From NCBI RefSeq assembly GCF_008065095.1, contig NZ_CP042911.1, positions 3,330,001 through 3,362,000 on the forward strand: DNA of 32,000 bases, given 5' to 3'. Both the position numbers and the translations under genes were made by a program. Each line of letters opens with the position of its first letter. Position 1 is the first letter of the stretch. Shown here one piece after another: positions 1 to 26,981 of this stretch. The stretch is from Gemmata obscuriglobus. GTDB taxonomy: Bacteria > Planctomycetota > Planctomycetia > Gemmatales > Gemmataceae. The notes beneath the pieces are model-generated. The model was not told the DNA's origin and did not search any database. It saw nothing but the letters and a program-made list of their open reading frames with translations.

Positions 1-1526
1 GGCTGTTCAAGTTCGCCGACACCACCGGCGATGACGCCGTGATGGCCCGGTTCCTGACTGGGTTCGATCGCACCATCCGCCGGCGTCGCGTCACGAAGGT
101 GCGTTACAACCACCGCCGCCGCGAGAACGAGCAGTACGAAGCGGTCGTGACCCCGAGCGACACCGTACTCGCACGCGACGACCGCTCGTACAGCGGGCCG
201 TGGTTTACCGCCGACCGGGAACAGTTCACTGCCGGGAAGTTCCTGTTCTCCGTTGCGACGCGGAACTACCTGCGTCGCCGGGCGTGGCGGTACTTTCGGA
301 AACTCGGACGCCAGCACCCCGAGCGGTACATCTCAGCCGTTTGCACGGCGCTCAAACTCTACACCGACGCCGACGCCCCGGACGGCCTCGCGCTGCTCGA
401 CAACTGGGGGCTCGTTCACGTCCTGTTCCACCACTCGCCCGTTCTCGACGCGAAGCCGACCGGCTGGCGCGTCGCGGACGGCGGGTCACTGTCGCGTTTG
501 CAACCCGAGCCCATGTTCCGCAAACTGTGGTTGCGGAGCGCCGAGCCGATCTTCGACCTCTTGGTGCGTGCGAGGTGCCGGCCCGTCGCGATGTGGGCGG
601 TGCAGATGCTCCGGAAGCACTTCCCGGAGCGACTGACACAACTCACGCTCGACGAGCTTCTGGAGTGGCTGGTCTCGCCGAGCAGCGTTCTGAACGAACT
701 CGCGCTGGAGGTGCTCGAAAAGCGCGGCGGGCTGGAACAGGTCACGATCGAGCAGTGGTTGCGCATCACCGACGAAGCCCGGACGGACCTGCTCGACCGC
801 ATCTGCGAACTGGTGGCGCGGAGTGTTAAACCGGAACAGGTGACGTTCGCCGACGCCGTGGCGCTCGCGATGCAGCGCCCGGTTCCGCTCGCCCGGCTCG
901 GCTTGACGTTCCTTCAAGGGAAGAAGGTCAACACCGCCGAGGAAATCACTGCGGTGTTCGGGCTGCGGAACGCCGAGTGCGAACCCTTGCGCGTCGATCT
1001 GGTGAAGTGGGCGTGCGAGGTGCTGAGTTCGCGGACGGACTTCGACCCCGTATGGGTGCTCGAGTTCCTCGACTCGCGCTTTGAAGAGGTGCGTGAGGTG
1101 GGCTGGGAGTGGTTCCAGATCGAGCCGCGTGCCCGCGACGCGGTACTGGTGTGGCAGCGCCTCCTGGAATCCCCTTACGACAACATCCGCTTCCGACTGG
1201 TCGGTATGCTGGAGGAGCGGATCAAGTCGCGCGACGGTTTTGGGCAGCTTCCGCCGGACCGCGTGCGGTTCCTCTGGGCCACGGTGCTGCTGAACGTCCA
1301 GCGCGGCAGCCGGGCAAAGCCGTTCGTGGTGCGCCAGGTCATCGACCGGCTCAGTGCGAGCCCGGACGAGGCCGGCGACCTGCTGCCGATGATCGCGGTC
1401 TCGCTGCGGTCGGTGCGCGGGCCGGAGTTCCGCGCCGGGCTGGCGGGGGTGGCGCGATTCGTTGCGAAGAACCCGACGCGCAAGCCTCTGGTGGAGGCGG
1501 TATTTCCCGAACTGCAGTGGGGTTGA
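1..1526 (+). CDS. Hypothetical Leu-rich alpha-helical repeat protein (HEAT/ARM-like by eye), C-terminal part; probably truncated by the window edge
   Basis: The reading frame is open from the window edge through the first GTG/ATG at 39-44, with stop TGA at 1524-1526. Helical segments recur, e.g. LDELLEWLVSPSSVLNELALEVLEKRG and VLVWQRLLESPYDNIRFRLVGMLEERI. No catalytic motif recognised. Confidence 0.6.
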   Translation, partial: LFKFADTTGDDAVMARFLTGFDRTIRRRRVTKVRYNHRRRENEQYEAVVTPSDTVLARDDRSYSGPWFTADREQFTAGKFLFSVATRNYLRRRAWRYFRKLGRQHPERYISAVCTALKLYTDADAPDGLALLDNWGLVHVLFHHSPVLDAKPTGWRVADGGSLSRLQPEPMFRKLWLRSAEPIFDLLVRARCRPVAMWAVQMLRKHFPERLTQLTLDELLEWLVSPSSVLNELALEVLEKRGGLEQVTIEQWLRITDEARTDLLDRICELVARSVKPEQVTFADAVALAMQRPVPLARLGLTFLQGKKVNTAEEITAVFGLRNAECEPLRVDLVKWACEVLSSRTDFDPVWVLEFLDSRFEEVREVGWEWFQIEPRARDAVLVWQRLLESPYDNIRFRLVGMLEERIKSRDGFGQLPPDRVRFLWATVLLNVQRGSRAKPFVVRQVIDRLSASPDEAGDLLPMIAVSLRSVRGPEFRAGLAGVARFVAKNPTRKPLVEAVFPELQWG

Positions 1527-1558
1527 GTTGTCGATGTTAAATGTGTGCGAGTCGGACA

Positions 1559-1691
1559 CACAGGGCTCCCGCCCTGTGCTACGCTCGGCAACCCCTACGG
1601 GGTGCAAAGACTGAGTACACGAACAACAACCGCCGTTGGATTTTCCGCCCCGGAGGGGCCGGTGGACGTAGCACAGGGCGGGAGCCCTGTG
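1559..1691. repeat. MITE-like element: perfect 25-bp terminal inverted repeats flanking an 83-nt core
   Basis: cacagggctcccgccctgtgctacg (1559-1583) is the exact reverse complement of cgtagcacagggcgggagccctgtg (1667-1691). Each arm is also internally palindromic (cacaggg...ccctgtg). Confidence 0.7.
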
Positions 1692-1702
1692 CCAACAACT
1701 AA

Positions 1703-1910
1703 GGTGTCCGTCGCGATCCGAGACCTTCTCTGCGGCGTTCCGCCGCGGGTGCAGTTGCTCGCGATTGCGTTCCCCGAGCCGTTGGTCTTTTCGCCGCCCG
1801 GGGTACTCCCAGGACGGACTGAATCGACCTGCATCTCCGTCCCGGGAGTACCCCGGGCGGCGTTCGTGAACGACTCGGGTCCACGATTGAAGTCGGTCGC
1901 GGCGGACACC
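1703..1910 (+). ncRNA. Retron-like msr-msd ncRNA, copy A (distal from the RT gene)
   Basis: Same 208-nt length and architecture as copy B. The terminal stem a1 1703-1721 / a2 1893-1910 has 17 Watson-Crick pairs, 1 G-U pair and 1 bulge. It carries the conserved block ctgcggcgttccgccgcgggtgc, a 27-position hairpin 1792-1818/1836-1862 (26 pairs, 1 mismatch) with the conserved loop ctgaatcgacctgcatc, and the conserved 3' block ggtccacgattgaagtcgg. Confidence 0.6.
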
Positions 1911-1926
1911 GCAATACACGAAGACC

Positions 1927-2030
1927 GAAGAGCTTTTGACAGGATCAACAGGATTTAACGGGATCGAAAACAAGCGATGCTCTTCGCCTTTTCAATCCCG
2001 TTGATCTTGTTAATCCTGTTAAAACTCTTC
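1927..2030. repeat. Imperfect palindromic intergenic element of the gacaggatcaacaggat family, copy 1; possible terminator
   Basis: gaagagcttttgacaggatcaacaggatttaacgggatcgaaaa (1927-1970) pairs imperfectly with ttttcaatcccgttgatcttgttaatcctgttaaaactcttc (1989-2030). Its 5' 28 nt match 6131-6158 at 27/28 positions. Confidence 0.7.
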
Positions 2031-2061
2031 AACGCCCAGCGCAGTTCGGGAGAGGCTCCGA

Positions 2062-3756
2062 ATGCAACTGAACACGGCGTATCGCGGGCGCAGTGCCGTC
2101 GCCCAGACCCCCGTCGGTCTGGCGGTGTCGCTCGCGCCGAACCTGCGCCGCGACCGCGTCAGCTACACGGGCGTGTTGCGCCAGCCGCTTCGGTTCCGCG
2201 AAGCCATGTCGGCGCTTCACGACGTGGTCATTTCGGACCTGCGGTTCAAGCCGAAGGACAAGACCGCATACGAGGAGTGGAAGAAGGAAGAGGCCGCGAA
2301 AGAAGCCCACATCCGCACCGAGGCCGTGAAGCTCAAACGCGCGGAACTCGAAAAGGAACGTGGCCGCCCCATGCCGCCCGGCCTGGAGCGCAAGTTCCAG
2401 CGGTGCCGGCAGCGCTACTGGGACGCGCGGACGCGGTACAGCAACCTGCTGTCGCGCGAAGACCCGGAACTGTGGCGGATGCTGATGCCGTGCGACCCGG
2501 TCATCACTGTCAGCCCGGACGTGATGTTCTTCGAGTGTTTCAGCGCGGACGAGAGCAGCTACGGGTGCCTGACTGTCGAGCGGGACGCCTTCGAGGCCGA
2601 GCGCGACGTTGCCCTCGGTACCACCAACGTCGATTACTCCTGGCGCCTGTACGAGCACTTCCAGACCATCCGCAGTTACCGCGAGACGCGCTTCACCATC
2701 GACCCGCTCGGCTTCGAGGTGCAGACCAGCACCGACGACCCGGCATACCGCGAAGAGAAGATCGACCTGCCGCAGTCGTGGCTCCGCGGGTTCTCGTCGC
2801 TTCAAAGCGCAATGAGCCTGCCGATGCGGCGCGTGCCGCTCAGCCGCGAGGCGGTCTATTCGGTGATCGCGTTTCTGACCCGCAACAAGTCCAAGCGGTC
2901 GCCCCGGGCCGTGCGCTTCGAGCTGACGCCCGGCCGGCCGGTGAAATTGGTTCTCGAGCCGTGGGACAAGGAGATCGTGGTCCACGACCTGCCGTCTTCT
3001 GGGGCGCGGAAAGAGGTGATTCGCACCTGGGGGCGGGACCGGCTCCGCGTGCTCGGGCGACTGCTGCCGCTGCTCGACGGCGTGGACGTGTACCTGCTGG
3101 GAACGGGGCTGCCGAGCTTCTGGGTCGCGAAGATGGGGGAAATGAAGCTCACGCTCGGGCTCTCCGGGTGGACCGCCAACGACTGGACGAGTGGCGGCAG
3201 TGCCATCGACCAAATCGCACCGCCGGTGGCGCCGTCCAACGACGTGATGCAGGCGATGGCCGCCGCGTTCAGAGACTCCCCGACGTGGACGCTACCGGCG
3301 CTGGCCACGAAGACCCGCGGGTCCGAGGCCGCGGTGTCGGCCGGGTTAAACAAGCTCGCCCTGCTGGGGCAAGTGATTCACGACCTCCCGCACGGCGTGT
3401 ACCGGTGGCGCCAGGTGATGCCGGTGACCCTTTCGGCCGAGGTGATCGGCCCCGAGAACGAGGAGACGGTCGCCGCCCGCGAACTCACGCGCTGGCGGTG
3501 CAAGATCAACTCCGACAAGACGGACGCGAAAGGGCAGCGGCAGGTTGTGGGGACGGTCGACGGCCGCTCCACGTCCGAGGTGACGCTGGACGCGGACGAC
3601 CGCATCGTGGCGGGCAAGTGCGGCTGTTCGTACTTCTACACGGGCGGGCTGCGGAAGGGGCCGTGTCGGCACCTTCAAGCGCTGCGCAACAAGGCGCTGG
3701 GCGTCGGCGGGGACGGCGGGACGCTCGACAACTGGTTCCGGCGGTTCACGAACTGA
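2062..3756 (+). CDS. SWIM zinc-finger domain protein (564 aa)
   Basis: C-terminal CxC-x12-CxH motif (GKCGCSYFYTGGLRKGPCRHLQAL). ATG is preceded by gggagagg. A Lys/Glu-rich coiled segment lies near the N-terminus. Confidence 0.85.
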   Translation: MQLNTAYRGRSAVAQTPVGLAVSLAPNLRRDRVSYTGVLRQPLRFREAMSALHDVVISDLRFKPKDKTAYEEWKKEEAAKEAHIRTEAVKLKRAELEKERGRPMPPGLERKFQRCRQRYWDARTRYSNLLSREDPELWRMLMPCDPVITVSPDVMFFECFSADESSYGCLTVERDAFEAERDVALGTTNVDYSWRLYEHFQTIRSYRETRFTIDPLGFEVQTSTDDPAYREEKIDLPQSWLRGFSSLQSAMSLPMRRVPLSREAVYSVIAFLTRNKSKRSPRAVRFELTPGRPVKLVLEPWDKEIVVHDLPSSGARKEVIRTWGRDRLRVLGRLLPLLDGVDVYLLGTGLPSFWVAKMGEMKLTLGLSGWTANDWTSGGSAIDQIAPPVAPSNDVMQAMAAAFRDSPTWTLPALATKTRGSEAAVSAGLNKLALLGQVIHDLPHGVYRWRQVMPVTLSAEVIGPENEETVAARELTRWRCKINSDKTDAKGQRQVVGTVDGRSTSEVTLDADDRIVAGKCGCSYFYTGGLRKGPCRHLQALRNKALGVGGDGGTLDNWFRRFTN

Positions 3757-3792
3757 CGGCGCCCGGGGCGTAACGGCAAAGGTAAGGGCACC

Positions 3793-4257
3793 GTGACGAA
3801 GCCGGTTCTGCTCGCGGGGGTGCTCGGCGGGGTACTCGGGGGCGCCGGAGCGTTTGTGCTGGGGCGGGCGTTCCCGGCGGCGCCGGCGGTGGTGGTCGAG
3901 AAACCGCACGAGGCCCGGCCGTTCGCCGACGACCTGTTCATGAAGCTTCAGAAGGGGCAGGCGGATGAGTTCCTGGCGGCGGTGCGTGTGGGGGACCCCG
4001 AATACGACGATGCGGAGTTCGACAAGCTGATCCGCCAGCCGATGCTGCGGGTGCGCGAGGGGGCGGTTCGAGGGTACGGCGGCGCGGGCTCGTTCGAGTT
4101 CTTTCGCGAAACGGTCACCGCGCCGGACCTCGTCCGCTTCACGTACCTGGAACGCTACCCGCGCGGGTGCCTCGTGTGGCTGCTGTACTGCTACCGCGGG
4201 GCCGGCGGCTGGCACCCGATCGGGCTCAAGTTCCTCAAACCGGATGTCGTGTTGTAA
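3793..4257 (+). CDS. Small membrane-anchored or secreted hypothetical protein (154 aa)
   Basis: GTG start preceded by aaggtaaggg. N-terminal hydrophobic helix KPVLLAGVLGGVLGGAGAFVLG. The gene lies 36 nt after the SWIM gene and 30 nt before ncRNA copy B. Confidence 0.6.
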   Translation: MTKPVLLAGVLGGVLGGAGAFVLGRAFPAAPAVVVEKPHEARPFADDLFMKLQKGQADEFLAAVRVGDPEYDDAEFDKLIRQPMLRVREGAVRGYGGAGSFEFFRETVTAPDLVRFTYLERYPRGCLVWLLYCYRGAGGWHPIGLKFLKPDVVL

Positions 4258-4286
4258 GTGATGAAGTAACAGAGACTACTGAAGCC

Positions 4287-4494
4287 AAGCGGCCGGCTCC
4301 GAGACCTAAACATCCTGCGGCGTTCCGCCGCGGGTGCGGCTGCTTGCGATTGCGTTCCCGGGAGTGTTGTTCGTTTCGCCGGTCGAATTCGTGGCGCTTC
4401 CGGCCTGAATCGACCTGCGTCTCCGGAAGGCCACGAATTCGACCGGCGTGGTGAACGCTCTCGGTCCACGATTGAAGTCGGAGCCGGCCGCCTT
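4287..4494 (+). ncRNA. Retron msr-msd ncRNA, copy B (immediately upstream of the RT)
   Basis: a1 4289-4302 pairs with a2 4478-4491 as 14 perfect bp, plus 2 more after a bulge. It has the GC hairpin gcggcg-ttc-cgccgc and a 26-bp hairpin 4377-4403/4423-4448 with one bulge and loop cctgaatcgacctgcgtct. It ends 20 nt before the RT start codon, the canonical msr-msd-ret order. Confidence 0.75.
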
Positions 4495-4514
4495 GTTACC
4501 CGCGAGCATCGCTC

Positions 4515-6125
4515 ATGAGCCTCTTCGACTGGGTGTTCCGCCGGAAGCGCGACGCGGACACCCCTCCGGCGCCACCCCCAGCCGCGCCGACTGCTCCCGC
4601 TTCTTCGGACAAAGCACCGTCGGGTAACACCACCTCGGGGACTCCGGGGGCGAATGCTCCTCGCTCGTCCGAGGGGAGCGAAGACCAGTACGCCGCGAAC
4701 GACTTCCTGCCCATTTCGCGTCAGGAGATCGTCGACGCTGCCAAGAAGCACGGGCGCCTGCTCGCCACCGCGTTCCAGTTCGGGCGCCAGAGCATCATCC
4801 CGCCCGTCAGCGACCCGCGGACCGAGATCATCGACCGCGCGCTCGTTACGCACGGACTGCTCACGCCCGAAGAACTGAACGAGATCCACCGCGTCGGCGA
4901 GGAGTACGAGAAGGTCCGCCCGACCGAGCAGGGCATTGCGGCTGCAGCCGGACTGGCCGGCACCGCCGCCGTGCAAGCGTACCGGGCGGCCAAGGAGGCG
5001 GAGAAGGAGCGCAAGAAAAGAGAAGCGGAGCTGCGCAAGAAGGTGCGCGCCGAAGCCGTCTGGCGGCGCCGCACCACCGATATCATTTTTTTGGGGCGTG
5101 GTGTGTCGGGGCGGCTCCACCTGCGCTTGAGCGACGAGGGGCGCCTCACGGAACTCGGGTTGCCGGTGATGCACACGCCCGCTGATGTCGCGAACGCCCT
5201 CGGCCTCACCGTTCCGCGGCTCCGCTGGCTGGCGTTCCACACCGATGTGGCCACCCGCACGCACTACGTGAAGTTCTCGGTCCCGAAGAAGTCCGGCGGG
5301 ACGCGCCAGCTCGCCGCGCCGCACAAGAGTTTGAAGGCCGCGCAGCACTGGATTCTGGCGAACGTCGTGAACAAGCTGCCGGTGACCGAGGCCGCGCACG
5401 GGTTCGTTGCCGATCGCGGGATCGTGACCAACGCAAACCCGCACGTTTGCAAGGCGTTCGTGGTGAACTTGGACCTGTCGGACTTCTTCCCCTCGATCGC
5501 GTTCCCGCGGGTGCGGAGCGCGTTCGAGCGGTACGGCTACTCGGGTTGTGTTGCCACCATTCTTGCGCTGCTCTGCACCGAGTGCCCGCGCGCCGCGGTA
5601 ACCTATGCCGGAACCAAGTACGAGGCCGCGACCGGCCCGCGCGGGCTACCGCAGGGCGCGCCCACCAGCCCCGGGCTGTCGAACCAAGTCGCGCGCAAGC
5701 TCGACAAGCGGCTGCTCGGGGTCGCGACGAAGCTCGGCCTCACCTACACCCGCTACGCCGACGACCTCACCTTCTCCGGTGATGCGGACGCCGCTGCCAA
5801 GATCGGCTGGCTGCTTACGAAGGTGCGCCACATCGCCAGCGAGGAAGGGTTCGCCGTCAACGAGAAGAAGACCCGTGTGATGCGCCGCAGCGCGGCCCAG
5901 ATGGTCACGGGTGTGGTGGTGAACGACAAGCCGTCCGTGTGCCGCGACGAGCTGCGCCGGTTGAGGGCGATTCTGCACCGCGCGAAGTCCGAAGGGCTGG
6001 ACGCTCAGAACCGCGAAAAGCTGCCGAACTTCCGCGAGTGGCTGCGCGGGAAGATCGCGTTCGTGAGTATGGTCCGCCCGGACGCCGGCGCGAAGCTCAA
6101 GGCTCAACTCGACGCCGTGTCGTAA
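4515..6125 (+). CDS. Retron-type reverse transcriptase with a roughly 200-aa N-terminal extension (536 aa)
   Basis: RT motifs VVNLDLSDFFPSI, RGLPQGAPTSPGLSN and YTRYADDLTFSG (YADD). Retron-typical NAxxH (TNANPHV) and VTG (QMVTGVVVND) motifs are present. The N-terminus is a Pro/Ala/Ser-rich low-complexity stretch followed by a Lys/Glu coiled segment (AKEAEKERKKREAELRKK). Confidence 0.9.
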   Translation: MSLFDWVFRRKRDADTPPAPPPAAPTAPASSDKAPSGNTTSGTPGANAPRSSEGSEDQYAANDFLPISRQEIVDAAKKHGRLLATAFQFGRQSIIPPVSDPRTEIIDRALVTHGLLTPEELNEIHRVGEEYEKVRPTEQGIAAAAGLAGTAAVQAYRAAKEAEKERKKREAELRKKVRAEAVWRRRTTDIIFLGRGVSGRLHLRLSDEGRLTELGLPVMHTPADVANALGLTVPRLRWLAFHTDVATRTHYVKFSVPKKSGGTRQLAAPHKSLKAAQHWILANVVNKLPVTEAAHGFVADRGIVTNANPHVCKAFVVNLDLSDFFPSIAFPRVRSAFERYGYSGCVATILALLCTECPRAAVTYAGTKYEAATGPRGLPQGAPTSPGLSNQVARKLDKRLLGVATKLGLTYTRYADDLTFSGDADAAAKIGWLLTKVRHIASEEGFAVNEKKTRVMRRSAAQMVTGVVVNDKPSVCRDELRRLRAILHRAKSEGLDAQNREKLPNFREWLRGKIAFVSMVRPDAGAKLKAQLDAVS

Positions 6126-6130
6126 TTCAT

Positions 6131-6235
6131 GAAGAGCGTTTGACAGGATCAACAGGATGGACAGGATGTCAAAGGCAATAACTACAGCGTCCTGTCATTG
6201 AAATCCTGTCCTTCCTGTTGATCCTGTCAAAAATC
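6131..6235. repeat. Palindromic intergenic element of the gacaggatcaacaggat family, copy 2; possible terminator after the RT gene
   Basis: tttgacaggatcaacaggatggacaggat (6139-6167) pairs with atcctgtccttcctgttgatcctgtcaaa (6204-6232) at 28/29 positions. It has the same orientation and the same 5' block as copy 1. Confidence 0.7.
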
Positions 6236-6272: not shown

Positions 6273-7973
6273 ATGCGTTACCTCTCGCTGTTGGTTCTTC
6301 TCGTGTGCGCGCCGGCGGCGCGAGCGACCGAGAAACCGAACATCGTCATCGTCCTCACCGACGACATGGGGTTCTCGGATCTCGGTTGCTACGGCGGCGA
6401 GATCAGCACTCCGAATCTCGACGCGCTGGCTGCGAACGGGTTGAGGTTCACGCAGTTCTACAACACCGCGCGGTGCTGCCCGACGCGGGCGTCACTGCTC
6501 ACCGGGCTGTACCCGCACCAGGCGGGCGTCGGTCACATGGTCAACGACAAGGGTGAGAAGTTCCCCGGCTATCGTGGAGACCTGAACAAGAACTGCGTCA
6601 CGCTTGCGGAAGCGGTGAAGCCGGCCGGATACCGCGCGTACGCGGTCGGCAAGTGGCACGTCACGCCCCACACCGGTCCGAAGGCGCCGAACCACAACTG
6701 GCCGCTTCAGCGCGGGTTCGACCGGTACTACGGCACCATCCAGGGCGCCGGGAGCTTCTTCGATCCGGCCTCGCTCACCCGCGACAACACACAGATTTCG
6801 GCGTTCGCGGATCCGGAGTATCAGCCGAAGACCTACTACTACACCGACGCCATCTCCGACCACGCGGTGCGCTTCGTCGCCGATCACGATAAGGAGCACA
6901 AGGACAAACCGCTGCTACTGTACGTCGCCTACACCGCGGCGCACTGGCCGATGCACGCGCTCCCGGAAGACATCGCGAAGTACAAGGGGAAGTACGGGAA
7001 CGGGTACGATCCCGTGCGAAAGGCTCGGTTCGAGAAAGCCGCGAAGCTGGGCCTCATCGACCCCAAGCAGGGGATGGCGCCCGGCGCCGGCGACTGGAAC
7101 GCAGTCGCGGATAAGAACTGGGAGGCCGCCGGGATGGAGGTGTACGCGGCGATGGTGGACCGGATGGACGCGGGCGTTGGGAAGATCGTCGCCGAACTGA
7201 AACGCACCGGGCGGTTCGACAACACGCTGATCCTGTACATGCAGGACAACGGCGGGTGCGCCGAACTTCAGGGGCGCACGGGGAACAAAAACCACCCGAA
7301 CATCGACCGCCCGGAGAAGCCGACCCTCCCGCCGCTGAAGGCCGACGCCCTCTTGCCATCGGGGAGCGTGCCGCCGCAGACCCGTGACGGGTTTCCGGTG
7401 CGCATGGGGCCGAAGGTGATGCCCGGGGCCGCGGACACGTACCTCGCCTACGGCCGCGGGTGGGCCAACGTGTCGAATACCCCGTTCCGCGAATACAAGC
7501 ACTGGGTCCACGAGGGCGGCATCAGCACCCCGCTCATCGCGTCGTGGCCGAAGGGCATTGCCGCGAGGGGCGAGTTGCGCACCCAGCCCGGGCACCTCGT
7601 GGACGTGATGGCGACCTGCATCGAACTGAGCGGCGCGCCGTACCCGGCTGCGGTCGGCGCGCAGGCGATTACACCGCTCGAGGGCAAGAGCCTCGTTCCG
7701 GCGTTCGCGAACAAACCGCTCGCGCGCGAGGCGATCTACTGGGAACACGAGGGCAACCGGGCGGTGCGCGCCGGGGACTGGAAGCTGGTCGCGAAGGGGC
7801 CGGGCGGGAAATGGGAACTGTACAACATCAAGGACGACCGCACCGAGTCGAGCGACCTCGCCGCAAAGCAACCCGACAAGTTAAAGGAACTCGTCGCGAA
7901 GTGGGAGGCGTGGGCCGTTCGCGCGAAGGTCGTCCCGTGGATCTCGACGCCAGAATACAAACTGAGCAAGTGA
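6273..7973 (+). CDS. Secreted arylsulfatase (Cys-type sulfatase family)
   Basis: Signal peptide MRYLSLLVLLVCAPAARA. Metal-binding start IVIVLTDDMGFSDLG. Formylglycine motif CCPTRASLLTG. Shine-Dalgarno gagg precedes the ATG. Confidence 0.9.
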   Translation: MRYLSLLVLLVCAPAARATEKPNIVIVLTDDMGFSDLGCYGGEISTPNLDALAANGLRFTQFYNTARCCPTRASLLTGLYPHQAGVGHMVNDKGEKFPGYRGDLNKNCVTLAEAVKPAGYRAYAVGKWHVTPHTGPKAPNHNWPLQRGFDRYYGTIQGAGSFFDPASLTRDNTQISAFADPEYQPKTYYYTDAISDHAVRFVADHDKEHKDKPLLLYVAYTAAHWPMHALPEDIAKYKGKYGNGYDPVRKARFEKAAKLGLIDPKQGMAPGAGDWNAVADKNWEAAGMEVYAAMVDRMDAGVGKIVAELKRTGRFDNTLILYMQDNGGCAELQGRTGNKNHPNIDRPEKPTLPPLKADALLPSGSVPPQTRDGFPVRMGPKVMPGAADTYLAYGRGWANVSNTPFREYKHWVHEGGISTPLIASWPKGIAARGELRTQPGHLVDVMATCIELSGAPYPAAVGAQAITPLEGKSLVPAFANKPLAREAIYWEHEGNRAVRAGDWKLVAKGPGGKWELYNIKDDRTESSDLAAKQPDKLKELVAKWEAWAVRAKVVPWISTPEYKLSK

Positions 7974-7992: not shown

Positions 7993-8940
7993 ATGCGACT
8001 TCTCCTCGCCTTAACAGCCCTGGCCGTTGCGGCGGTGCCAGTGGCTTCCGCCGCCGATTCCAAACACCCCGGCTACCGCATCCTCGCGCAGGACAAGGGG
8101 CACGTTGCGATCGTCGGCGCCGACGGCAAAGTGGAATGGGAGATCGAGTGCAAGCACAACTCCCACGACGCTCACCTGCTCCCGAACGGCAACCTGCTGC
8201 TCCACACCGCGCCGACCGTGGTGACCGAGTACACGCCCAAGAAGGAAGTGGTTTGGAAGTACGACGCGAAGCAGAAGGAGGGTTACAAGGGGCGCGTGGA
8301 GGTTCACGCCTTCCAGCGCCTCGCCGACGGTAACACGCTGGTCGCCGAGAGCGGCAACCGGCGCATCGTTGAGGTGAACAAGGACGGCAAGATCGTGAAG
8401 GAGATCGCCCTCCAGGTGAACCGCCCGGACCCGCACCGCGACACCCGCATGGTCCGCAAGCTCGACACCGGTAACTACCTCGTGTGCCACGAGGGCGATG
8501 GCGCGGTGCGCGAGTACGACACGGCCGGGAAAATCGTGTGGGAGTACAAGCTCGACCTGGGCGGGCGCAAGGAGTCGCCCGGCCACGGCCCCGAGGGGCA
8601 CGGAACCGCGGTGTACGGCGCCATCCGACTTGCGAACGGCAACACGCTGATTTCCGGCGGTAACAACAACCGCGTGCTCGAAGTCGATAAGGACGGGAAG
8701 ATCGTGTGGAGCATCGACCAGAAGGAGCTGGACGGGATCACGCTGGCGTGGGTGACGACGCTGCACGTCCTGCCGAACGGGAACGTGATCGTCGGCAACT
8801 GCCACGCCGGCGACGGGAACCCGCAACTGTTCGAGGTGACGCGCGACAAGAAGGTGGTCTGGCGGTTCAAGGACTTCCGTACCTTCGGTAACAGCTTGGC
8901 CGCCGCGCACGTGCTCGACATCAAGGACGTGCGCCGCTGA
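7993..8940 (+). CDS. Secreted beta-propeller repeat protein (PQQ-like/BamB-like repeats by eye)
   Basis: Signal peptide MRLLLALTALAVAAVPVASA. Six recurring blades have the core DGK(I/V)VWE: DGKVEWE, KKEVVWKY, DGKIVKEI, AGKIVWEY, DGKIVWSI, DKKVVWRF. Confidence 0.75.
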   Translation: MRLLLALTALAVAAVPVASAADSKHPGYRILAQDKGHVAIVGADGKVEWEIECKHNSHDAHLLPNGNLLLHTAPTVVTEYTPKKEVVWKYDAKQKEGYKGRVEVHAFQRLADGNTLVAESGNRRIVEVNKDGKIVKEIALQVNRPDPHRDTRMVRKLDTGNYLVCHEGDGAVREYDTAGKIVWEYKLDLGGRKESPGHGPEGHGTAVYGAIRLANGNTLISGGNNNRVLEVDKDGKIVWSIDQKELDGITLAWVTTLHVLPNGNVIVGNCHAGDGNPQLFEVTRDKKVVWRFKDFRTFGNSLAAAHVLDIKDVRR

Positions 8941-16384: not shown

Positions 16385-16437
16385 AAGCACCAAGGCCACT
16401 CATCCAACGTCGCGTTGGATGAGTGGCCTTGGTGCTT
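16385..16437. terminator. Very long perfect hairpin (about 25-bp stem) between the M16 operon and the tRNA 3' end; possible bidirectional terminator
   Basis: aagcaccaaggccactcatccaacg-tcg-cgttggatgagtggccttggtgctt. It is followed by gcctttt on the + strand and lies 20 nt downstream of the minus-strand tRNA. Confidence 0.5.
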
Positions 16438-16457
16438 GCCTTTTCAGGCTTCAGAAG

Positions 16458-16532
16458 TTGCGGCGGTTGGATTTGAACCAACGACCTCCAGGTTATGAGC
16501 CTGGCGAGCTGACCGGGCTGCTCCACGCCGCG
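16458..16532 (-). tRNA. Initiator tRNA-fMet (anticodon CAU), CCA not encoded
   Basis: The reverse complement reads CGCGGCG-TG-GAGC-AGCCCGGTCA-GCTC-G-CCAGG-CTCATAA-CCTGG-AGGTC-GTTGG-TTCAAAT-CCAAC-CGCCGCA-A. The cloverleaf folds, with the C1-A72 mismatch and A11:U24 pair typical of bacterial initiators. Confidence 0.9.
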
Positions 16533-25467: not shown

Positions 25468-26981
25468 GCGGTGCGCTGGCCGGCGACTTTCGCGACTACA
25501 TTGTCGCGCACATCGACGAGGACACGCCGCGCCTCGCCTACGCCGACTGGCTCCAGGAGCAAGGGCGGGACGAGCGGGCCGAGTTCATCCGGGTGCAGGT
25601 CGAGCGGGCGCAACTTCCCACCTGGCACCCGGCGCAGGTGCGCCTGGCCCTGCGCGAGCGCACGCTGATCGAGCGGTACGGCGAGGAGTGGCTCGCGGAG
25701 CTGCCGGTCATTGAGGGCGCGCGGTGGGAGGGGTTCCGCCGGGGCATCGTCGCCGAGGTGTCGTTCGCCAGCTTCGAGGCGATGCGGAAGAACGCCCACG
25801 CGTGTCGGGCCGCGGCCCCGGTCGAGGCGGTCACCGTCCGCTGGCCGCGCCGCCGCGAGGGCGGCCGGACCGTGAATCCGATCGCCGAGCTGCGCGAACT
25901 CACCCTCACCGGGAACCCCGATTACGACGCGTTCGAGTGGGTGGCCGGGTCCCCGCAACTGGCCACCCTTCGCGGGCTGACGGCCCGCAGCCTGTGGGGC
26001 GCTTCGCTCGGGGTGCTGGCCGGCTCGCCCCACCTGGCGAACCTGAAATCGCTTTGCCTGCCGTCGAACAATCTCGGCAACGAGGGGATCTTCGGTCTGG
26101 CGAAAGCGGTCACCTTGTCCGCTCTCGAGGAGCTGGACTTTTCCTCGCAGAGCCGGCACGAGCGGTACATTCACGACCCGGTCATCCGGGCGGCCGGGAT
26201 GGGGGCGCTCATCGGCTGGTCCGGCCTGGCTACCGTGCGGGCGCTGACCCTGAACGGGAACGACGTGAGCCGGGACGGCCTGAGGGCCTTGCTGCGCTCG
26301 CCGCACGTCGCGGGGTTGAAGCACCTGTCTTTACGCGACGGGCAACTGGACGGTCAGGCGATGGCGGAGTTCGATTCCGCGCGTCCGGACCTTCGACTGG
26401 AAACGCTGGACCTCGGCCAGAACGTGCTTCAAAACGTCGGCGCGGAGTACGTCGCGCTGGCCCCGTGTTTGTGCGAACTGAAGGCCCTTCGGCTCGACCG
26501 GTGCGAGGTTCGGCTCACCGGCGCCCGCGTGCTCGCGAAGAAGGCCGCGTTCCTCGACGGGCTGCGGCTGCTGGACATCGGTCACAACCACTTTGGCCCG
26601 GCCGGGCTCGGCGCGCTCTTGGAGCGCCCGCCGGCGGCGCTCCACACCCTCCGGGTGCGCGACAACGACCTCACGGCCGAGGGGGCCGAGCTGCTGGCCG
26701 CGGCACCGGCGTCGGACACCCTGCTGGAACTAGACCTGTGTCGGAACCGGCTGGGCGCACGTGCGGTGCGGGCGCTGGGGGAGGCCGAGCACTTGCGGGG
26801 TTTGTTGGTGTTACGCCTCGCCGACAATCCGATCCGGGCGCGGGACGCCGAGGCGCTGGCCGCGTCCCCACTCGGCCGGCGTTTGGCCGTACTGGAATTG
26901 GAAGCTCCGGAGCCGGACGGGCCGGGCGCCGACCAACTGGAGCCGGACGAGCCGGATACGGACGAGCCGATTCCGTTCTGA
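25464..26981 (+). CDS. TIGR02996-type repeat-companion domain plus RNI-like leucine-rich repeat protein (505 aa)
   Basis: N-terminus DTPRLAYADWLQEQGRDERAEFIRVQ. It is followed by about 28-aa repeats of type L..L.L..N.LG..G...LA.SP.L..L. The tail is acidic (EPDEPDTDEPIPF). The ATG overlaps the upstream stop (ATGA at 25464-25467). Confidence 0.85.
   Translation: MSGALAGDFRDYIVAHIDEDTPRLAYADWLQEQGRDERAEFIRVQVERAQLPTWHPAQVRLALRERTLIERYGEEWLAELPVIEGARWEGFRRGIVAEVSFASFEAMRKNAHACRAAAPVEAVTVRWPRRREGGRTVNPIAELRELTLTGNPDYDAFEWVAGSPQLATLRGLTARSLWGASLGVLAGSPHLANLKSLCLPSNNLGNEGIFGLAKAVTLSALEELDFSSQSRHERYIHDPVIRAAGMGALIGWSGLATVRALTLNGNDVSRDGLRALLRSPHVAGLKHLSLRDGQLDGQAMAEFDSARPDLRLETLDLGQNVLQNVGAEYVALAPCLCELKALRLDRCEVRLTGARVLAKKAAFLDGLRLLDIGHNHFGPAGLGALLERPPAALHTLRVRDNDLTAEGAELLAAAPASDTLLELDLCRNRLGARAVRALGEAEHLRGLLVLRLADNPIRARDAEALAASPLGRRLAVLELEAPEPDGPGADQLEPDEPDTDEPIPF

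Follow-up and report, generated by a model that had tools for sequence, protein, structure and literature searches.

Retrons are defined and annotated as one reverse transcriptase (RT) plus one adjacent noncoding RNA (ncRNA), and structural and functional models assume that each system has a single multicopy single-stranded DNA (msDNA) species. Inouye and colleagues, around 1990, reportedly found that Myxococcus xanthus makes two msDNAs, Mx162 and Mx65, from separate retrons at different loci that have their own diverged RTs. Type XIII retrons are defined by three proteins, namely RT, SWIM and HEAT/ARM, in Mestre et al. 2020 (PMC7736814); they have a clade-10 RT together with SWIM/DEDE and HEAT/ARM proteins, and their members are Mxa1/Mx162, Mxa2/Mx65, Sau1/Sa163 and Nex2/Ne144. 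Several ncRNAs per RT have been described in engineered arrays ('multitrons', González-Delgado et al., PMC10370050), in which one retron RT reverse-transcribes several ncRNAs per transcript independently. We analyzed a 32,000-nucleotide stretch of the Gemmata obscuriglobus genome (contig NZ_CP042911.1, positions 3,330,001 to 3,362,000; hereafter, the window) that contains a type XIII retron with two ncRNA genes, distal copy A and RT-proximal copy B. Judging from the sequence, this is likely a natural multi-template retron, in which two functional msr-msd genes would use one RT to yield two msDNAs.

What G. obscuriglobus carries here is a type XIII retron that looks to have been inherited vertically. 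The genes are arranged in the order HEAT/ARM, ncRNA copy A, SWIM, a small membrane protein (O154), ncRNA copy B and RT, all on the + strand, and the RT is identical in sequence to WP_010038241.1 of G. obscuriglobus. As is said of M. xanthus, the genome is predicted to give more than one msDNA within the same retron family; unlike the reported M. xanthus case, the Gemmata copies lie at a single locus and have a single RT and the same msr hairpin sequence in common. The canonical type XIII order is HEAT-SWIM-ncRNA-RT with one ncRNA at the RT, whereas there are two ncRNA genes here (up to three in relatives), and one of the Gemmata ncRNAs lies between HEAT and SWIM, 2.6 kb from the RT. The two copies belong to the same ncRNA family as type XIII, as the covariance model that detects them also matches the ncRNA beside myxobacterial RTs, whose a1/a2 duplexes are approximately 34 bp. 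Both copies show the retron ncRNA layout described in PMC7736814, including two opposing G residues inside a1/a2, and the apparently vertical, syntenic inheritance here is also noted for type XIII in that paper. Multitrons (PMC10370050) differ in being synthetic and based on Retron-Eco1, with the same msr and ends repeated; the Gemmata copies are spaced between genes and have different a1/a2 ends that cross-pair poorly.

An earlier note on this DNA, made from the letters alone, had suggested that two ncRNAs for one RT could be an undescribed retron feature. The text of Mestre et al. (PMC7736814) does not mention multiple ncRNAs per RT, nor do a 2026 metagenome survey and the experimental census preprint mention multiple ncRNAs per retron RT. 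The suggestion agrees with the literature searched, which yielded no case of a natural retron whose RT has several ncRNAs, although absence is no proof. As far as that literature shows, the arrangement is otherwise described only in engineered retrons.

The earlier note had also proposed that a second full ncRNA copy with the same layout was present about 2.6 kb upstream of the RT-proximal one. This was confirmed, as both copies matched one covariance model over their full length, at 197 and 185 bits. Copy A is 208 nt long and copy B about 210 nt (Table 1). The blocks that had been listed as near-identical, TCCGAGACC, CTGCGGCGTTCCGCCGCGGGTGC, GCGATTGCGTTCCC, the loop CTGAATCGACCTGC(A/G)TC and GGTCCACGATTGAAGTCGG, were all exact in both copies, and the outer ends and hairpin arms were diverged yet paired, the copies differing at most of these positions while pairing was kept within each. 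The a1/a2 duplex of copy A has 14 + 4 bp, with 1703-1721 pairing with 1893-1910 (-36 kcal/mol), and that of copy B includes a perfect 14-mer inverted repeat at 4289-4302/4478-4491 (-35.4 kcal/mol). The msr hairpin (CUGCGGCG-UUC-CGCCGCGG, 8-9 bp) is identical between copies A and B. A second local msr hairpin (GCAGUUGC...GCGAUUGC), without covariation, was predicted in copy A only; copy B folds otherwise. The msd is made up of an 11-bp basal stem and then a hairpin of 26-27 bp, capped by a conserved loop of 17-19 nt. The arms of copy B form 19 perfect bp (4377-4395/4430-4448), a 1-nt bulge, and then 7 bp to 4403/4423. An irregularity after 19 bp, to which the earlier note had drawn attention, was indeed present in both copies of the window but was not conserved in orthologues: in Gemmata algarum, the orthologue of copy A forms a regular pair at the irregular position of the long hairpin, and a copy with the copy-B arm in related locus L083 has no bulge.

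Fold z-scores against dinucleotide shuffles were -10.1 for copy A and -8.7 for copy B, and the complementary DNA strands of the predicted msd also folded stably, with z-scores of -8.3 and -5.5. Copy B is adjacent to the RT, ending 19 nt before its start codon. Copy A, which has the same orientation, is separated from the RT by two genes, 2.6 kb upstream, and ends 150 nt before the SWIM start. The covariance model, run with filters off, detected no third ncRNA copy in the 32 kb. No Rfam family covered either copy at gathering or E-value thresholds, and only chance microRNA-type matches on the hairpins were obtained.

We sampled 80 type XIII RT loci among the matches listed (mostly distant lineages), 10 Gemmataceae loci by exact protein look-up, and 25 metagenome loci. 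Genes were mapped by tblastn and ncRNAs by a covariance model, R1, built from relatives. This model identified an ncRNA in 52 related loci among those sampled; it is biased to Planctomycetota, and loci without any ncRNA match (Bacteroidota, Cyanobacteria and others) are uninformative on copy number. The same model finds the ncRNA beside type XIII RTs of myxobacteria, Verrucomicrobiota, Pirellulales and others at 60-140 bits. In other phyla the arrangement is HEAT-SWIM-ncRNA-RT with one ncRNA adjoining the RT, and approximately 20 sampled loci have all four components. Sixteen loci of the Gemmataceae clade, with RT identities of 57-97% to the window, have both a distal and a proximal copy, and three of these 16 (L082, L083 and L103) have three copies. 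A single distal ncRNA in the order HEAT-ncRNA-SWIM-RT is found in L002, L005, L086, L101, L104 and L021. Tandem ncRNA pairs directly upstream of the RT are present in L061, a Planctomicrobium metagenome-assembled genome (5077-5265 and 5344-5533), and in L105, a metagenome contig (1-137 and 215-397); these suggest that the ncRNA gene may have been duplicated more than once, independently. A second retron RT was not found by tblastn in the 32-kb window, nor in any related locus (up to ±10 kb).

The distal site, in the gap between HEAT and SWIM, was filled in 22 of the 22 loci where it was visible. The RT-proximal copy, on the other hand, was missing in the six distal-only loci (6/22), and also in L091. 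The L091 region 1568-2148 reads SWIM-O154-RT, with only 146 nt ahead of the RT and without an ncRNA match; although the O154 gene is retained in L091, its proximal copy seems to have been lost. Absence of copy A from relatives that keep copy B would have counted against the earlier proposal, and the opposite was seen, with copy A retained and the proximal copy missing instead. Copy A is not the 'extra' copy; the distal lineage is the conserved one by its position and by an A(C/T)CATG linker. Because L086, L002, L005, L101 and L104 have only the distal copy, with SWIM between it and the RT, these data suggest that distance from the RT may be tolerated in Gemmataceae type XIII retrons and that a distal ncRNA may be sufficient.

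Selection on structure was assessed in an alignment of 42 copies from 23 Gemmataceae-clade loci. Paired cells accounted for 95.4% of the total, compared to 36-46% when the partners were slid. Compensatory change was found in 36 of 49 pairs overall and in 26 of the 27 pairs of the long hairpin. The observed covariation score was reached in 0 of 500 shuffles, and a smaller set of 15 copies agreed. The msr hairpin was 99% paired across copies, with compensatory change in 3 of its 9 pairs. An a1/a2 duplex was present in all 46 copies examined. The priming contexts CGA-G-AC and GAA-G-UCGG were kept in all 42 copies, except that three had A changed to C (GACGTCGG) and one had its final G changed to T. 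The pairing across the 42 copies, the compensated hairpin pairs and the presence in every copy of its own a1/a2 duplex bear out the earlier proposal of selection on structure rather than decay.

The ends of the copies are specific to each copy. Throughout the family, distal copies keep the a1 sequence (ACGGTGTCCGTCGCG) and its a2, with compensatory substitutions and, in L087, a compensated insertion; the proximal a1/a2 sequences are unlike the distal ones and vary by sub-clade. Within a locus, the mean duplex energy was -27.9 kcal/mol for cognate a1/a2 pairs compared to -12.2 kcal/mol for non-cognate pairs. Such orthogonal ends are a requirement if several ncRNAs share one transcript and each folds alone. 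The type of base pair also differed among the stems. G·U pairs made up 0.5% of the long-hairpin cells in distal copies and 0.4% in proximal copies, whereas the a1/a2 stem had 7.3% and the msr hairpin 16-26%. Such scarcity of G·U fits stems that must also pair as DNA, whereas selection on RNA only would tolerate G·U; the depletion would thus fit reverse transcription of both copies.

The presence of one RT per locus, the retention of the multi-copy layout, the distal-only lineages and the precedent of engineered arrays support the reading of two templates for one RT. Under this reading, the genes would probably be co-transcribed as one or two long transcripts. The distal copy begins approximately 20 nt past the HEAT stop codon in L087, L096 and L115, which leaves little room for a promoter and favors co-transcription. 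Each ncRNA would then fold alone in the transcript, with a1 pairing only with its own a2, and the RT would recognize the msr part common to both copies. Priming would use the 2'-OH of the G located immediately within a1/a2, G1722 in copy A and G4303 in copy B, and the msd would be copied back from about 1891 or 4476. The two predicted msDNAs, roughly 105-120 nt, would have a common basal stem and 17-19 nt loop and completely different stems of 26-27 bp. Both RNA-DNA hybrids would presumably go on to form complexes with one set of partners, the SWIM and HEAT/ARM proteins.

Several observations weigh against two functional templates. No sigma-70-like promoter was found in 1400-4600, near either copy, and the DNA upstream of the copies is not conserved between species, the flanking intergenic DNA being unalignable. 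A palindrome at 1927-2032, between copy A and SWIM, could terminate or process transcripts. The sequences in the covariation alignment are related, so that the counts of paired cells overstate the number of independent events, although the contrast to the slid controls is still large. Finally, DNA-level copying that regenerates palindromes, without reverse transcription, could also give a Watson-Crick bias in the stems.

Other explanations for the second copy were considered. Only one copy might template reverse transcription, with the other being a structured RNA that acts as a scaffold or decoy for the RT or SWIM/HEAT, or as a cis-regulator of the downstream gene. With copy A 150 nt before SWIM and copy B 19 nt before the RT, each could affect the gene downstream, and the proximal copy is dispensable in some lineages; however, an RNA-only role would not require the priming context that is kept in 42 copies (with minor variants in four), the copy-specific ends or the scarcity of G·U, and we consider this explanation rather unlikely. 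We regard it as quite improbable that copy A is the template of another RT elsewhere in the genome, as the remnant of a second retron whose RT moved. M. xanthus, which is said to make two msDNAs from two retrons, would be a precedent. The distal copy, however, is within the HEAT-SWIM-RT cluster in 22 of 22 loci and is the sole ncRNA near the sole RT in five or six lineages; moreover, the msr hairpin is identical in copies A and B, and no second RT was found in the 32 kb or within up to ±10 kb of the RT in related loci.

The comparative data largely refute a third explanation, in which copy A arose by recent duplication and is neutral or decaying, without function. Duplication of the ncRNA does occur, as seen in the three copies of L082, L083 and L103 and the tandem pairs of L061 and L105. 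Nevertheless, conservation of the distal copy extends to loci with RT identities as low as 55-63%, where its flanks are unalignable, compensatory changes keep a1/a2 and the hairpin, and the single Gemmataceae clade, with its old and retained duplications, is contrary to a recent event, so that this explanation has very little left to recommend it. Generic palindromic repeats unrelated to the retron, similar to repetitive extragenic palindromic (REP) sequences or miniature inverted-repeat transposable elements (MITEs), might be thought of because other palindromic repeats are present at the locus (1559-1691, 1927-2032 and 6136-6232). Such repeats almost certainly do not account for the two copies, as only two elements were present in the 32 kb with filters off, both on the gene strand, their homologues occur specifically next to type XIII RTs in several phyla, and a1/a2, the paired Gs, the msr hairpin and the long msd hairpin make up the retron ncRNA layout of PMC7736814.

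To examine the origin of the copies, we built a neighbor-joining tree, without bootstrap, on the non-arm columns. All Gemmataceae copies formed one clade on these columns; the duplications therefore would have occurred within the family, and the tree points to duplications that are old and retained. The first-branching distal copies were the first copy of L082 and of L083, and the copy of L086. The A(C/T)CATG linker is common to the first-branching distal copies and the outgroup ncRNAs, while the proximal copies have longer, derived linkers. Based on the tree, the linkers and the occupancy of the two sites, the distal lineage would be the constant one and the RT-proximal copy a variable addition. 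Copy A of the window is a mosaic, with ends of the basal distal type and a core that clusters with the second of the distal copies in genomes that have three copies.

The arms of the msd hairpin changed much faster than the remainder of the ncRNA. Identity across copies had a median of 81% in the non-arm parts and 56.5% in the arms, which we took to be near random. G. obscuriglobus and G. algarum (L081) have 97-98% RT identity and approximately 96-97% DNA identity across the locus, or about 3-4 differences per 100 nt. The copy-B arm-loop-arm (about 4385-4441; hairpin 4377-4448 compared to L081 9864-9935) was nonetheless wholly different between the two species. There were 36 differences in 4300-4499, the remainder of copy B was 98% identical, and the block that was replaced includes the loop variant. 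The copy-B arm of the window recurred at 96% identity in a distal copy of L083 (7163-7342), a locus with 79% RT identity and another a1/a2 type, and the arm families GGACCGGTC and GGGGTACCCC also occupy both distal and proximal sites in different genomes. Arms were never common to the copies of one genome (22 pairs, maximum identity 71%).

From these replacements we infer that arm-loop-arm cassettes may be exchanged by gene conversion or a related process. We therefore put forward, tentatively, the broader possibility that Gemmataceae retrons are natural multi-template systems with a repertoire of 2-3 msDNAs whose stem cassettes are actively exchanged between copies and lineages. One possible mechanism is that the msDNA serves as a natural recombineering donor, annealing via the conserved stem base and loop and converting a paralogous msd. 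Another possibility is that diversification of the stems provides baits to which phage or host factors bind.

Two other sources of arm variation were rejected. The first was copying of the arms from phage DNA: 14-15 nt cores taken from both arms gave approximately 70 IMG/VR matches each, none longer than 19 nt, which was judged to be chance level for a collection of this size. The second was a diversity-generating retroelement (DGR), which would have an RT of the DGR type, together with template and variable repeats that differ at adenines and a target gene containing the variable region; the RT matched retron and not DGR models, and the variable arms are noncoding, differ at all four bases and change jointly. 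As a separate observation, many hairpin arms contain 8-bp palindromes resembling restriction sites, namely GGGTACCC, GACCGGTC (5' arm, L085 7221-7399), CGAATTCG (5' arm, window 4383-4390) and GCCTAGGC. These were present in 17 of 40 arms compared to 8.0 ± 2.5 in shuffles; related arms share them, so there are few independent events and the enrichment is weak.

Table 1. Positions of the retron genes and ncRNA elements in the window.
Feature	Position	Strand	Evidence or remark
HEAT/ARM-repeat accessory gene	3..1526	+	PADLOC HEAT-ARM_XIII, E 2.4e-151; 5' end beyond window edge
ncRNA copy A (distal msr-msd gene)	1703..1910	+	covariance model R1, 197.4 bits, E ~1e-50
Copy A a1	1703-1716, inner CCGA 1718-1721	+	
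Copy A candidate branching G	1722, opposing G 1892	+	
Copy A msr hairpin	1730-1748	+	
Copy A basal msd stem	1772-1783 with 1870-1880	+	
Copy A long msd hairpin	1792-1818 with 1836-1862, loop 1819-1835	+	26/27 positions paired
Copy A a2	1897-1910, inner UCGG 1893-1896	+	
SWIM zinc-finger protein gene	2062..3756	+	PADLOC SWIM_XIII, E 1.8e-180
Small conserved protein O154 (154 aa, N-terminal hydrophobic helix)	3793..4257	+	syntenic homologues, without family match
ncRNA copy B (RT-proximal msr-msd gene)	4286..4495	+	covariance model R1, 185.2 bits, E ~1e-50
Copy B a1	4286-4302	+	
Copy B candidate branching G	4303, opposing G 4477	+	
Copy B msr hairpin	4315-4333	+	
Copy B long msd hairpin	4377-4403 with 4423-4448, loop 4404-4422	+	
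Copy B a2	4478-4495	+	
Retron RT	4515..6125	+	PADLOC RT_XIII, E 8.6e-155; Pfam RVT_1

The proteins of the locus agree with its assignment. The RT translation has the NAXXH (as NANPH), VTG and YADD motifs. The SWIM zinc-finger protein (cluster 114) is the primary associated protein of type XIII retrons, and the C-terminal CGCSYFYTGGLRKGPCRH of the protein encoded here matches the motif CxCx12CxH described in PMC7736814. The frame of the HEAT/ARM gene is open back to base 3 of the window, and its orthologues are 587-589 aa. The longest open reading frame between the copies, 1977-3773, is in the wrong frame; it was rejected for its low-complexity translation, rich in R/A/G/P, and its lack of family matches, and the real gene is that of SWIM. 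The O154 protein had no match in Pfam, PADLOC or NCBIfam. Its syntenic homologues have 33-44% identity and 154-185 aa, with conserved FEFxRET and PRGCVVW motifs, and the gene is limited to the sub-lineage with a AAGCCAAGCGGCCGGC-type (B1) or CTTCGGGTGG-type proximal ncRNA. Only some members of the clade have the O154 gene as an insertion between the SWIM gene and the proximal ncRNA.

Downstream of the RT is a beta-propeller gene (PQQ_2 / Mal s 1-like, 7993-8940), which is also present in most Gemmataceae loci that reach that far, but not in L092. A sulfatase gene (6273-7973) intervenes between the RT and the beta-propeller gene in some Gemmataceae loci. This synteny downstream of the RT speaks for vertical inheritance of the retron.

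Other repeats and RNA genes were present in the window. An AT-rich long palindromic element has two copies, at 1927-2032 and 6136-6232, with the common core TTGACAGGATCAACAGGAT and fold z-scores of -8.7 and -10.5. The two bracket the SWIM-O154-ncRNA-B-RT segment, one being between ncRNA copy A and the SWIM start and the other just after the RT stop. The exact 19-nt core recurs in G. algarum at the first site only; the second site there is in a much more diverged stretch. Possible roles for these elements are transcript termination or processing, or they may belong to a mobile repeat. Directly upstream of copy A is an inverted repeat of 50 nt (1559-1608 and 1642-1691), the arms of which gave sub-threshold matches to the Rfam Acido-Lenti-1 RNA (RF01687), 31.8 and 30.9 bits compared to a gathering threshold of 37, in opposite orientations. 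The repeat at 1559-1691 is present in G. algarum and not in other relatives, which have different palindromic inserts at the same spot. Two transfer RNA (tRNA) genes were found, tRNA-Met (CAT) at 16457-16532 on the - strand and tRNA-Val (TAC) at 26301-26391 on the + strand; a short hairpin beside tRNA-Met (16388-16438) had weak, hairpin-only matches to the ncRNA model.

The arrangement has consequences for how retrons are annotated and studied. Templates will be overlooked by annotation pipelines that search only beside the RT. The prediction of two msDNAs is directly testable by msDNA sequencing, since G. obscuriglobus, a model planctomycete, can be cultured. The findings also raise the questions of what role the variable msDNA stem has in type XIII retrons and why the cassettes turn over so fast between near-identical species; if the msDNA acts as a donor, the retron would rewrite its own templates. 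For multiplexed retron editors, the Gemmataceae loci offer natural design rules, consisting of distinct a1/a2 ends, a common msr and swappable stems. With two or three orthogonal templates per RT, retron RTs would serve several substrates in nature, and not only in engineered arrays.

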